Positions 31,816 to 37,074 of a stretch of DNA of 64,000 nt are shown one piece after another. Below the pieces are notes generated by a model. It saw nothing but the letters and a program-made list of their open reading frames with translations, was not told where the DNA came from and ran no database searches. The stretch comes from Candidatus Heimdallarchaeum endolithica (GTDB lineage Archaea; Asgardarchaeota; Heimdallarchaeia; Heimdallarchaeales; Heimdallarchaeaceae): the NCBI GenBank assembly GCA_021513715.1, contig CP084167.1, positions 864,001-928,000 on the forward strand. Reading direction: 5' to 3'. A program made the position numbers and the translations under genes. How positions within the stretch are numbered: the stretch's first letter is position 1; each line of letters begins with the position of its first letter.

Positions 31816-33117
31816 TTGCAATATTATATTCCTGAATGGGATGATCTAGTTAGTTCGAAGTATGACTACTGGAATGATGTTGAGTTACCTAACTCAAAAA
31901 AGGTTTACGCACATGAGATATACCCTAAACCAAATTATGATGGAATTTTAGTATCAAGAATGAAAATAGAAGAGAGTAAATCAAAAATTGAAAAGATAAA
32001 GAAAGTTGGAGTACATAAATTCTTCAGATTCGAAGGGCCTATTTTTGGAGATTGTGGAGCATGGGGGTACATAAATGAAAAGAACCCACCATTTGAAACA
32101 AAAGACATGTTAAGCTATTATGAAACCCTTGGATTCAATATTGGTGTCTCAATTGACCATTTATGCATCCCACAAGTTAAATCAGAATGGTACTATAGAC
32201 AAGAACTAACATTAAAAAATGCAGAACAATTTTTCAATCTCTACGAAAATGGAAACTATTCTTTTAAAGCTGTAGGAGCAGCACAAGGATGGGATTTAGA
32301 ATCATATAGGTACGCAGTACAAGAGTTGTTAGATATAGGATACGATTTTATTGCATTAGGAGGGTTAGCAAGAGCACAAACAAGTGTAATTATTAAAATT
32401 CTAAAAAATATTCAAGATTTAATTGAAGGTAAAAAAATAAAGATCCATCTATTTGGTGCTGCTAGATTAGATGGTTTACGTGCATTTAATAATTTAGGAG
32501 TAACGAGTTTTGATTCAGCTTCTCCTCTCAGAAACGCATGGTTAGGTTCAAAAAAGAATTACAGAGGTTTAGATTGGAAAGGATATACTGCTATTCGTTT
32601 ACCTTTTCTTTCAAGAACAAAGAAATACCAACAGTTAGTGGAAAAAGGTTTATTCTCAATAAAAGAATTAGAAGAATTTGAAAAATCCATCTATGCTCTT
32701 TTAAGAAGATATGAAATAGAAAAAACTCGAAGTCCTGAAGAAATAATAGAAGCTTTTGAAATGCTCAACCAAACATTTACTTTAAGGGATGATCTAAAAG
32801 AAGACTACAAAGAAACATTGAGTGAACGACCATGGGAAAAATGCCCATGTCCTGTTTGTAAAGAAGCTGGAATGGATGTTATTATCTTTAGAGGAAATAA
32901 TAGGAACAGGAGAAGAGGTTTTCACAACACGTTTGTTTTTTATCAATTAATGCAAAAGATCCTTAAAGACACAAATTTTGAAGGTACCCCATATTTGAAG
33001 TTAGTACATGAAAAAGATTTTTCAATTCCAATTCAAAGACAAACAAAAAAAATAAAATCTAAAATTAATAAACAGACAAAAATTGAAAATTTCTTTGAAC
33101 AAATAGATGAGGAATGA
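31816..33117 (+). CDS. dpdA: DpdA-type tRNA-guanine-transglycosylase paralogue (7-deazaguanine DNA modification)
   Basis: YYIPEWDD.V, YAHE, YDGILVS, GDCGAWGY, VSIDH, AQGW, IALGGL, HLFG, SFDSAS, RPWEKCPCPVC and FRGNNRNRRRGFHN motifs. Confidence 0.85.
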   Translation: MQYYIPEWDDLVSSKYDYWNDVELPNSKKVYAHEIYPKPNYDGILVSRMKIEESKSKIEKIKKVGVHKFFRFEGPIFGDCGAWGYINEKNPPFETKDMLSYYETLGFNIGVSIDHLCIPQVKSEWYYRQELTLKNAEQFFNLYENGNYSFKAVGAAQGWDLESYRYAVQELLDIGYDFIALGGLARAQTSVIIKILKNIQDLIEGKKIKIHLFGAARLDGLRAFNNLGVTSFDSASPLRNAWLGSKKNYRGLDWKGYTAIRLPFLSRTKKYQQLVEKGLFSIKELEEFEKSIYALLRRYEIEKTRSPEEIIEAFEMLNQTFTLRDDLKEDYKETLSERPWEKCPCPVCKEAGMDVIIFRGNNRNRRRGFHNTFVFYQLMQKILKDTNFEGTPYLKLVHEKDFSIPIQRQTKKIKSKINKQTKIENFFEQIDEE

Positions 33118-33941
33118 TAATGAGTTCAGAGTTTGAGAAGATAGCTAGTAAAATAATGATACAAGTTGGGACAAAAAAAGAAGAAGCTTTAAGATGTCTC
33201 TATTATGAACCTAAAAAAGAAACAAAACAAACTATTGTTCTTATTCCAGGTTTTTTTTCGCTTCCAAGTGCTTGGGATGAACTATTAATGAATGCAAAAG
33301 AAGACTACAGGCTGTTTTTAATTGAGACTAGAGAAAAGCATACAGCAAAAATCAATAAAAAAAGTGACTTTTCTTTAGAACGTTTTGCTAATGATATTGC
33401 AGAAGCTATTGATTACCTTATGTTAAAAGATTATATTTTAGTTACAAGTAGTATGGGAGGAGCTTTTACCTTAACTGCTATGAAAAAAGGTTTAATCAAT
33501 CCTAAACATAGTTTTCTTGTTGGCCCTGTTCTAAAGGTAGAAATTCCTGATTGGTCTTGGCCTCTAGTCAGAATAACTAGTCCTTTCTTTTATCGTTTCA
33601 TGTTAAAACCTTCAATTAAAATCTATGTTAAGAGTAAGTTTGAGAGAGATCAAGCTGAAAAATACTGTGTTTCACTGGACAACCTGGAAATCAGAAGAGT
33701 TAGAAAAACAATGTTAACTCTCAAGAAATTTAGAATAACTGCTGAAGACCTTAACATCATAAATTCTCATTGTATCCTCATAGGTGCAGAAAAAGACAAA
33801 CTTCACCAATCTCAAATAACAAAATGGATTCATGAACAAATACCTAATTCAGACTATGTAGATTTAGGTTCAAATGTAGTAGCTCATGGAATTCCTCTAT
33901 TAGAGTTAATAGAAAAAACAATAGAAGAAGAAAAAAGTTAA
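33114..33941 (+). CDS. Alpha/beta hydrolase
   Basis: LIPGF, nucleophile TSSMGG, D and H near C-terminus; ATGA overlap with dpdA stop. Confidence 0.8.
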   Translation: MIMSSEFEKIASKIMIQVGTKKEEALRCLYYEPKKETKQTIVLIPGFFSLPSAWDELLMNAKEDYRLFLIETREKHTAKINKKSDFSLERFANDIAEAIDYLMLKDYILVTSSMGGAFTLTAMKKGLINPKHSFLVGPVLKVEIPDWSWPLVRITSPFFYRFMLKPSIKIYVKSKFERDQAEKYCVSLDNLEIRRVRKTMLTLKKFRITAEDLNIINSHCILIGAEKDKLHQSQITKWIHEQIPNSDYVDLGSNVVAHGIPLLELIEKTIEEEKS

Positions 33942-34020
33942 CTCTTATTAAAAAGCCTAATTTGTTTTATAAGTACCCAACATACCAAAATTTAAAAATT
34001 CCTATTTTTTTAATTTAAGT

Positions 34021-35699: not shown

Positions 35700-35867
35700 A
35701 TGGCACAAAAATGGATTTGCACTTTATGTGGTTATATTTACGACCCTGCAGAAGGAGACCCTGATGGAGGAATTGCTCCCGGAACAGCTTTCGAAGATAT
35801 TCCTGAAGACTGGGTTTGTCCTGAATGTGGAGCTGCAAAAGAAGATTTTGAACCCTACGAAGATTAA
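35700..35867 (+). CDS. Rubredoxin
   Basis: [18 protein letters not shown]...[16 protein letters not shown]; true start is the ATG at 35700. Confidence 0.97.
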
Positions 35868-35889
35868 AATATTCTTTAATTGTTTTTTT

Positions 35890-37074
35890 TTACAATTTTC
35901 TATTTTTTCTTGATAATTGAACTATTTTTTTTATTATTACAAACTTTGTTTCGTTTAGTTTATTCTTAGTTATTTTCATTTTTTCTTGCTTGACTCTTAT
36001 TTGATTTGCAAATTCGTTTGAAATTAATAGCTCCTTTTGTTCACAAATTTTGCTATCTATCTTTGTTTTTATTATTCCAAATAATTGATTATATTTGTCA
36101 ATAATTTTTTCATAAATAGTTAATTTCGAAGAAAATTTCGATCTATATGTTTCTATTTTTTCAGCTTGTTTAATATTCATCGAAGTTAGATTGTTAATTG
36201 CTTCAGATAGAGCTTTTAGCTCATCTGCCGTAAAATTACTCTTAACAAAGTCTGAAATTATTGAAGTAATAGTGTTATCTAGTAGGTAATCTGTTTGTCT
36301 ATTATAATTAATGTCAATGGCTAATTTTCTTATAGTTGATTTCTTTCTTTTAGTTATATTTTCTTCTTTTTCTGTTGTTAAGTACTTTTCAACTAAACCT
36401 AGTTTTTCTTCCCACCATTCCTTAAAAGAAAGACCAGGAACATATTCTATTGCAAAGTTTAGAAAAATTGTCCCTTTAGCTAAAACAGTTGCACCTATAG
36501 GTTCTTTGAATATGGGTTTAGTCGTTTTTTTACCTACAAAATCATAAGTACTGAAAGAATGAAAATTAGAAGGAAGATCTTTCACTTTCCCAAAAAAAAC
36601 AATTTCCTGTCCAAGATTAGCTATGTCTTTAAGATTACCTAAACTTACTAAGTAATCTTTTCCTAACGAAAGATAAACAAGATCATATGTTTTTTTTGAT
36701 AAGTGTCTAATAGATTCAGGGATAGCTAATTTTTCAGCCCTTTCTTTTATCGCTTTTTTTGACAAACCAGAAAATGAGCATTCATAGGGAGGAAGAAGCT
36801 CATTCTCACTAACTAACCCAAAACCTGCAGATATTATGTAATAATCCACTTCAGCTTTTGATGAAAGAACATTAACAGCTTTTTTTATAGCAACAGCTTG
36901 TCCGCCAGTGTATAATTCCCCAGCTTCTGTCAATAAGGATGAGAATTTCTCTTTAACTCTTTCTCTTTGATCTTTTGTTTCTAAATCCTTGCATGTAGGC
37001 TGTTCTTCATGATGTATAGATTTCTTCTTTCCACAAGAGTTAATTACAAGTATTGAAGGTTTCAGAAATCTCAC
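35890..37074 (-). CDS. DUF6884/YaaA-like N-domain plus coiled-coil protein (candidate DpdA partner)
   Basis: SCGKKK, A.ELYTG and IISAGFGLV.....LPPYE.SF motifs; C-terminal coiled coil. Confidence 0.65.
   Translation of the reverse strand: MRFLKPSILVINSCGKKKSIHHEEQPTCKDLETKDQRERVKEKFSSLLTEAGELYTGGQAVAIKKAVNVLSSKAEVDYYIISAGFGLVSENELLPPYECSFSGLSKKAIKERAEKLAIPESIRHLSKKTYDLVYLSLGKDYLVSLGNLKDIANLGQEIVFFGKVKDLPSNFHSFSTYDFVGKKTTKPIFKEPIGATVLAKGTIFLNFAIEYVPGLSFKEWWEEKLGLVEKYLTTEKEENITKRKKSTIRKLAIDINYNRQTDYLLDNTITSIISDFVKSNFTADELKALSEAINNLTSMNIKQAEKIETYRSKFSSKLTIYEKIIDKYNQLFGIIKTKIDSKICEQKELLISNEFANQIRVKQEKMKITKNKLNETKFVIIKKIVQLSRKNRKL

Follow-up and report, generated by a model that had tools for sequence, protein, structure and literature searches.

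Introduction

To our knowledge, the only cells shown to contain 7-deazaguanines in their DNA are bacteria with the large DpdA-K system; such bases have also been demonstrated in viruses. Here we describe two genes of an Asgard archaeon that may extend this chemistry to archaeal chromosomes. They lie in a 64,000-nucleotide stretch (the window) of Candidatus Heimdallarchaeum endolithica (contig CP084167.1, positions 864,001 to 928,000); one is dpdA, for a DpdA-type DNA-guanine transglycosylase, and the other encodes a DUF6884 protein, referred to below as the partner. The reading that we favor, at somewhat better than even confidence, is that these form a DpdB-independent, restriction-less 7-deazaguanine DNA-modification pair, DpdA plus a DpdC-type DUF6884 enzyme, marking the cell's own chromosome at low density.

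The DpdA/DpdB/DpdC system of Salmonella enterica serovar Montevideo (structure 7UI4; PMC10164549) offers the first comparison. The archaeal transglycosylase belongs to the same family and retains both the zinc site and the three catalytic or substrate-binding Asp residues; the partner contains the DpdC-type DUF6884 core; and preQ0 would in both cases come from the tRNA-modification pathway of the host. The resemblance of the partner to DpdC is confined to the N-terminal ~110 residues, and the archaeal locus sits in a housekeeping chromosomal neighborhood, whereas that of Salmonella is in a genomic island.

Closer in sequence are proteins annotated as DpdA but uncharacterized: the DUF6884-DpdA fusions of cyanobacteria, Paenibacillus, Chloroflexota, and other bacteria, and the DpdA-DUF6884 proteins of haloarchaeal plasmids. 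The closest non-Asgard relatives of the window DpdA (44 to 47% identity) are DUF6884-DpdA fusions of 670 to 705 amino acids; the DUF6884 domain is of the same type, and DpdB is likewise missing. In the fusions both domains reside in one polypeptide, usually accompanied by DEAD/UvrD/HerA-type ATPases, an additional short TGT paralogue, and often queCDE, in an arrangement that resembles a defense cluster, whereas the window pair consists of separate, convergent genes without such neighbors. Phage DpdAs (9g, CAjan; PMC6884629) insert 7-deazaguanines into DNA without DpdB but fall in DpdA subfamilies different from that of the window. Finally, Escherichia coli YaaA (5CAJ) and Bacillus subtilis YfjM, both DNA-binding proteins with a proposed base-flipping cleft, have a fold like the N-terminal domain of the partner; YaaA differs in sequence (~13% identity) and is not linked to TGT enzymes. 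Set against these systems, the window pair is predicted to be known DpdA/DpdC chemistry in an uncharacterized architecture: DpdB-less, restriction-less, and with the partner reduced to the DpdC core.

Identity of DpdA

An earlier note on this DNA, made from the letters and translated open reading frames (ORFs) alone, had called a complete DpdA-type TGT paralogue at this position, and the family models agree. The protein matches the NCBIfam DpdA equivalog NF041059 with 394.5 bits over model positions 1 to 405 of 406 (curated cut-off, 200 bits) and the PADLOC DpdA model with 358 bits. Its alignment with Salmonella Montevideo DpdA 7UI4 runs from end to end (E value, 2.8e-68; residues 1 to 383), compared with an E value of 1e-6 for arcTGT. 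The residues to which roles have been assigned in 7UI4 (PMC10164549), namely, the catalytic nucleophile Asp256, the general acid/base Asp95, and the base-recognizing Asp130, all have counterparts in the window DpdA (D233, D79, and D114, respectively). The zinc site (CxCxxC...H) is made up of C343, C345, C348, and H370, and both the catalytic Asp and the zinc-site residues are invariant in an alignment of 13 DpdA sequences. The Gly-Gly loop is retained. Contact residues show conservative changes relative to 7UI4 (His181 to Gln157, Phe99 to Trp83, and Leu236 to Phe213), and the final ~50 residues form a Lys-rich tail beyond the family model. The gene is under purifying selection, with a dN/dS against the congener genome of 0.06, similar to that of housekeeping neighbors. 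By these sequence criteria the protein is a bona fide DpdA family member, and exchange of guanine for preQ0 in DNA is its predicted activity.

That a TGT-superfamily member might modify RNA, specifically tRNA, rather than DNA has to be considered, and two of the contact residues fit such a role: position 157 is Gln, as in tRNA TGTs (His in Salmonella DpdA), and position 213 is Phe, as in arcTGT. We nevertheless regard this as highly improbable. Besides the end-to-end 7UI4 alignment, the score of 394 bits for the DpdA equivalog contrasts with 42.7 bits for the arcTGT model, far under the cut-off of 350 bits for the latter. The sole Pfam match is the TGT core, with no PUA or other tRNA-binding domains, and a distinct, full arcTGT (454 bits) together with an ArcS-like gene (373 bits, under its cut-off of 440) already serves tRNA. 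Helicases, NurA/HerA, and UvrD, which are found at related loci, act on DNA. The earlier note had held that clustering with tRNA-acting TGTs would count against a DNA substrate; in our maximum-likelihood tree, all DpdAs, including that of the window, stand apart from the genome's own arcTGT and from the short TGT paralogues, and the DNA-type identity stands. Within the tree, the DpdB-linked proteobacterial DpdAs form their own clade with 100% support; deeper nodes are weak.

Outside the window, the same genome encodes one further TGT-superfamily paralogue, a 387-amino-acid protein (C1:2747031-2748194, L056:1468-2631) that falls in no named family (98.9 bits for arcTGT, against the cut-off of 350, and 33 bits for DpdA).

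The DUF6884 partner

The partner had been labeled DUF6884-like on the strength of the motifs SC..KK, LYTG, ISAG.GL, and PYE, a label that the Pfam DUF6884 model confirms with 31.3 bits, barely over its cut-off of 30. The motifs are located at residues 13 (SCGKKK), 54 (LYTG), 81 (ISAGFGL), and 96 (PYE). For this family, the Pfam curators describe a YaaA-like DNA-binding fold, with CxxxK and LSAxxG as its motifs and a model in which a DUF6884 member flips a base. DpdC itself is a DUF6884 protein according to a preprint; the older literature names it DUF328/YaaA-like. Consistent with this, the PADLOC DpdC models match residues 7 to 114 of the partner at an E value of 6e-9, and the CxxxK, LYxG, SAGxGL, and PY motifs are common to the partner and canonical DpdC in an alignment that includes Agrobacterium DpdC. 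Eight residues within these shared motifs (C14, K18, Y55, S82, A83, Y97, G138, and Y141) are invariant among Asgard partners. The earlier view that dpdC is missing thus needs to be divided: there is no full-length DpdC, but the DUF6884 gene supplies a DpdC-family partner.

An AlphaFold model of the partner, built from 31 homologues, has a pLDDT of 91. The top solved fold match in a VIA search is YaaA 5CAJ (Z score, 10.0; 179 residues aligned, residues 6 to 226), followed by the next structure at a Z score of 7.0; Foldseek gave a borderline match (E value, 1.6e-3), and neither a PDB sequence search nor NCBIfam returned any match for the protein. The partner is the only DUF6884 gene in the genome and shows a dN/dS of 0.19 against the congener, again indicating purifying selection. 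Going by motifs and models, we take the partner to have the core of the DpdC family without being a full-length orthologue of DpdC.

The C-terminal ~130 residues of the partner correspond, in shortened form, to an accessory domain, here named c1b. It was recognized through weak but recurring BLAST similarity (E values of 1e-4 to 2e-3 over ~130 amino acids) to the N-terminal half of a ~290-amino-acid protein encoded by a separate gene beside DUF6884 in Thor-type genomes. Full c1b is fused to DUF6884 in two Heimdall genomes (521 and 533 amino acids). The beta-rich half of c1b was found neither downstream of the partner gene, nor elsewhere in the window, nor in the rest of the genome, and a protein-atlas look-up of c1b gave sub-threshold DUF11/CARDB-like leads only.

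Linkage of dpdA and the DUF6884 gene

The earlier note had suggested that the second domain is fused to or found beside DpdA in other taxa, and it had asked for a survey of Asgard genomes, counting a lack of conserved linkage against its reading; the linkage proved to be strongly conserved and very common. In the phylum, 22 of 400 genomes encode DpdA; the match in one of these is divergent and under the cut-off, and all 21 genomes with an above-cut-off DpdA also carry DUF6884. The DUF6884 gene is adjacent or fused to dpdA in 18 of the 22 loci (counting fetched loci plus genome G242, whose adjacency was read from coordinates) and lies within 4 kb in 3 more, where two genes intervene: the window genome, its congener, and one Loki-type genome. 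It is missing only next to the divergent DpdA-like gene. Metagenomic homologues of the two proteins are likewise encoded on common contigs with neighboring locus tags.

Outside the Asgard archaea, the two domains are also found fused, with DUF6884 first in the bacterial proteins and DpdA first in those encoded on haloarchaeal plasmids. Among the 80 closest DpdA loci in GTDB species genomes, DUF6884 is fused at 55, adjacent (within 125 bp) at 14, and within 5 kb at 6; it is therefore fused or adjacent at 69 of 80, while DpdB is present at 5. As judged from gene content, a DpdC-type domain, not DpdB, is the near-universal partner of DpdA in this part of the DpdA family.

Other genes near Asgard dpdA include those for the precursor transporter QueT, a NUDIX protein with a UvrD-like helicase, NurA/HerA, or a protein with the ArcS signature PCx3KP.x2Sx2H. 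Taken together, these neighbors are circumstantial evidence for deazaguanine chemistry on DNA, and it is QueT or the ArcS-motif protein beside dpdA that ties the module to 7-deazaguanines.

Several of these loci are of interest in their own right. In Thor-type genomes, dpdA is followed by a gene for a 170-amino-acid DUF5591 protein with the ArcS-type signature PCx3KPIx2Sx2H (L030:10725-11243, L031:8961-9485, and L033:10709-11212); dpdA and the DUF5591 gene co-occur or are both absent, and their site is flanked by the DUF6884 gene on one side and A-type ATPase genes on the other. Such an arrangement suggests a deoxyarchaeosine-type finishing step in these organisms. In the Loki-type genome (L042:5253-10629), the gene order is DUF6884, NurA, HerA, and dpdA, and loci of Methanothermococcus and Methanoperedens (L140 and L164) have UvrD-like helicases next to the two genes or between them; both look like defense-type versions of the module. 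A Candidatus Borrarchaeum contig (L037:8929-12861) encodes a 163-amino-acid DUF6884 protein, DpdA, an unknown 402-amino-acid protein, and a QueT transporter, and this short DUF6884 protein matches the PADLOC candidate-defense model PDC-M57A with 72 bits. A Hodarchaeota contig (L039:9178-11565) carries a 795-amino-acid DUF6884-DpdA fusion that groups with bacterial fusions in the tree and whose DpdA match is split by a ~53-residue insertion between model positions 138 and 142. The second short TGT paralogue of bacterial and haloarchaeal fused loci (~310 to 340 amino acids), often between DEAD-box helicases (L045:6159-7082, L047:11975-13009, L061:11209-12132, and L064:13311-14258), was found beside DpdA in none of the Asgard loci.

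Supply of preQ0

The proposal that the module draws on host preQ0 is borne out at the gene level. A QueE candidate, MptA, QueD, and QueC are clustered near 1.87 Mb in the genome, the QueE candidate having been located by tblastn beside the other three; a further QueC and QueD are found elsewhere, and the arcTGT and ArcS-like genes described above complete the picture. A 207-amino-acid ORF between MptA and QueD was ruled out as QueE, having no Cys motif. Given these pathway genes, preQ0 should be available.

Proposed mechanism and alternatives

We imagine that DpdA would act on double-stranded DNA, removing guanine by way of a covalent intermediate between Asp233 and deoxyribose while Asp79 serves as general acid/base, and would insert preQ0 from the host archaeosine precursor pathway without the help of an ATPase. 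The DUF6884 protein, with its YaaA-like DNA-binding fold, would then bind the modified site, flip the base out, and convert the 7-cyano group, most likely by hydration to the amide (dADG), using the conserved Cys14/Lys18 center. The outcome would be a low-density mark on the chromosome with no linked restriction, which could serve in self-marking or in protection against foreign nucleases. Because the pair is present without helper ATPase or restriction genes, it is probable, as far as gene content can tell, that this Heimdall-group archaeon marks its own chromosome. Of the restriction genes of the Salmonella system, DpdD (profile and tblastn) and DpdK (tblastn) had no match in the genome, DpdE to DpdJ not having been searched individually genome-wide, and a PADLOC defense scan of eight neighboring proteins found nothing.

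A number of observations weigh against this reading. The first concerns DpdB. Salmonella DpdA requires the DpdB ATPase in vitro, and none was found in the window genome: the model NF041060 gave no match, nor did tblastn with three DpdB proteins, in agreement with the earlier statement that dpdB is missing. According to a passage in a 2026 paper, which cites PMC4801273 and PMC6207457, DpdB is dispensable in some clusters. The second concerns the extent of the likeness to DpdC. The best DpdC model scores 33.8 bits on the partner and covers profile positions 6 to 114 of 312; the partner and every DpdA-fused DUF6884 domain score 27 to 40 bits over the first ~110 profile positions alone, whereas canonical DpdCs score 351 to 470 bits at full length (Agrobacterium DpdC, 351 bits with PADLOC). 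The third is the layout, since the genes are convergently oriented in this genome with 2.8 kb between them and for that reason are not cotranscribed. The fourth is that ~100 Asgard genomes that have no DpdA retain a DUF6884 orthologue at the same chromosomal position. Such persistence implies a DpdA-independent role for the partner, one not limited to finishing the product of DpdA.

In an alternative reading, the DUF6884 protein would not convert the nitrile; it would take the place of DpdB, binding DNA and flipping out the target guanine for DpdA, and dPreQ0 would be the final mark. None of the loci with DUF6884 fused to DpdA has DpdB, the partner is without the C-terminal two-thirds of DpdC, and its fold is that of the DNA-binding YaaA, in line with the Pfam curators' model of a base-flipping family member. 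We consider such a helper role rather improbable. The invariant Cys/Lys/Ser/Tyr motifs are those of catalytic DpdC, no other DpdC is found in the fused loci, and DpdB and an adjacent DUF6884 gene occur together at two loci (L139 and L157), so the two are not simple alternatives.

The third and fourth observations bear on whether the two genes are coupled here at all. DpdA might act alone, like phage DpdAs, while DUF6884-c1b does a DpdA-independent job, be it the handling of lesions or abasic sites, as for YaaA and YfjM, or work on another 7-deazaguanine nucleic acid. A profile of Asgard DUF6884 domains matches 120 of the 400 genomes, and many strong matches over the full length come from genomes that have no DpdA. 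In the DUF6884 tree, the branching agrees with taxonomy and DpdA-linked members are mixed with DpdA-less ones, as expected from vertically inherited orthologues that are retained when DpdA is not there. In Thor-type genomes, the DUF6884-c1b pair sits beside A-type ATPase genes with or without dpdA, which when present is accompanied by the small DUF5591 gene. Furthermore, in the window genome the partner evolves faster than DpdA and has lost half of c1b, and YfjM is known to bind damaged DNA. We judge uncoupling unlikely, though it deserves to be taken seriously; wherever DpdA is found, in Asgard archaea, methanogens, haloarchaea, and many bacterial phyla, DUF6884 stands beside it or is fused to it, which is hard to explain unless DpdA depends on the DUF6884 protein. 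Either dpdA was repeatedly lost from an ancestral module or it joined a resident pair. As for the convergent arrangement, it would be the expected outcome of a single inversion of the dpdA-hydrolase-TPR block beside the DUF6884 gene. The favored reading, a coupled DpdA and DpdC-type enzyme, thus has to allow for a partner with an additional role.

DUF6884 and c1b genes are found as pairs at conserved positions in DpdA-less Asgard genomes, for example, at L065:7985-9573 and L067:7042-8683 and at 16 further loci (L066 to L082).

The locus and its neighbors

The window belongs to a 3.33-Mb, single-contig genome of ~30% G+C that is 92.6% complete, and the database proteins closest to those of the window are named Candidatus Heimdallarchaeaceae (97% identity). 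The coordinates and gene calls that the earlier note gave for positions 31816 to 37074 were correct (Table 1).

Table 1. Features of the dpdA-DUF6884 locus (positions in the window)
Feature	Position	Strand	Length or extent	Remarks
dpdA, DpdA-type DNA-guanine transglycosylase	31816-33117	+	433 amino acids	
Alpha/beta-hydrolase-fold gene	33114-33941	+	275 amino acids	Resident neighbor outside the conserved module
TPR-repeat gene	34021-35610	+	529 amino acids	Resident neighbor outside the conserved module; weak TPR matches
DUF6884 protein, whole ORF	35890-37074	-	394 amino acids	
DUF6884/DpdC-type catalytic domain, YaaA-like fold	36370-37074	-	Residues 1 to ~235 of the 394-amino-acid ORF	
C-terminal helical extension, shortened c1b	35890-36285	-	Residues ~264 to 394 of the DUF6884 ORF	

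The hydrolase gene, which follows dpdA, had been described as translationally coupled to it and as conceivably processing the nitrile or amide. The overlap is real, with the dpdA stop sharing an ATGA at 33114 to 33117 with the ATG of the hydrolase ORF, and in a second genus the hydrolase gene adjoins the DUF6884-c1b pair. The protein has an SSMGG nucleophile elbow and weak alpha/beta-hydrolase family matches under all Pfam cut-offs. A function for it as a third component of the system is nonetheless one to which we assign very little weight. The hydrolase family is present in 47 of 47 genomes of the order, at 6 to 11 copies per genome, and the specific orthologue (E values of ~1e-90, ~50% identity) is found in nearly all genomes of the family, including those without DpdA and DUF6884. 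The overlap is not shared even by the congener, where there is a 2-nucleotide gap. In the sister genus, the order is TPR, hydrolase, c1b, DUF6884, and an FrhB-like gene; in members of that genus without DUF6884, the hydrolase gene abuts the FrhB-like gene, and the downstream genes are the same, including homologues of ORFs 37081-37850 and 37994-38329. Relatives have the TPR orthologue (E values of 1e-52 and better) next to the hydrolase gene whether or not they carry DUF6884 and DpdA. The hydrolase gene is unlinked in two further genera of the family, and neither it nor the TPR gene has a homologue at any of the other 80 DpdA loci. Both genes are therefore resident bystanders and not parts of the system, and the proposed nitrile- or amide-processing role falls away.

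The coiled-coil ORFs at 37081 to 37850 were also ruled out as parts of the system; their homologues flank the locus in relatives without the module. The wider flanks consist of ordinary genes, for a lipoate ligase, an M20 peptidase, a cation antiporter, a metallophosphoesterase, a GDPD protein, a nitroreductase, and a Ras-family GTPase. The last of these (42981 to 43595; Pfam Ras, 178 bits) is a typical eukaryote-like gene of Asgard archaea. No foreign-DNA signature was seen in the base composition of the window, and no tRNA gene was found at the locus. A viral origin was ruled out, there being no close phage or IMG/VR relatives: tblastn of the window DpdA against 50,697 phage records gave one weak match, and only 8 IMG/VR contigs match it, at 43% identity or less.

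Discussion

NCBI already names such Asgard proteins DpdA, and our literature search found no paper describing an Asgard DpdA. The present analysis adds that the hydrolase and TPR genes are bystanders, and it contributes the statistics on fusion and adjacency and the wide DpdA-independent spread of the partner.

Beyond the window, one can envision that Asgard archaea more generally write dPreQ0 or dADG into their own chromosomes, and Thor-type relatives perhaps deoxyarchaeosine, using a DpdA that requires no ATPase together with a DpdC-like partner, and without any coupled restriction; this partner, DUF6884 plus c1b, would be an older, vertically inherited pair with a second, DpdA-independent function on nucleic acids. 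We offer this wider proposal tentatively, as plausible but short of even confidence.

The two genes are small and easily expressed and so are suited to tests of DpdB independence, and the analysis also flags a widespread DUF6884 protein that occurs without DpdA. If our reading is right, a two-gene form without ATPase or restriction would show that DpdA can work on cellular DNA without DpdB, and a DpdC-type domain rather than DpdB would be its near-universal partner. The DNA of archaea related to the eukaryotic ancestor may then bear a mark that is not a methyl group and that comes from the pool of archaeosine precursors, which would amount to an orphan, epigenetic-type replacement of a DNA base in the closest prokaryotic relatives of eukaryotes.

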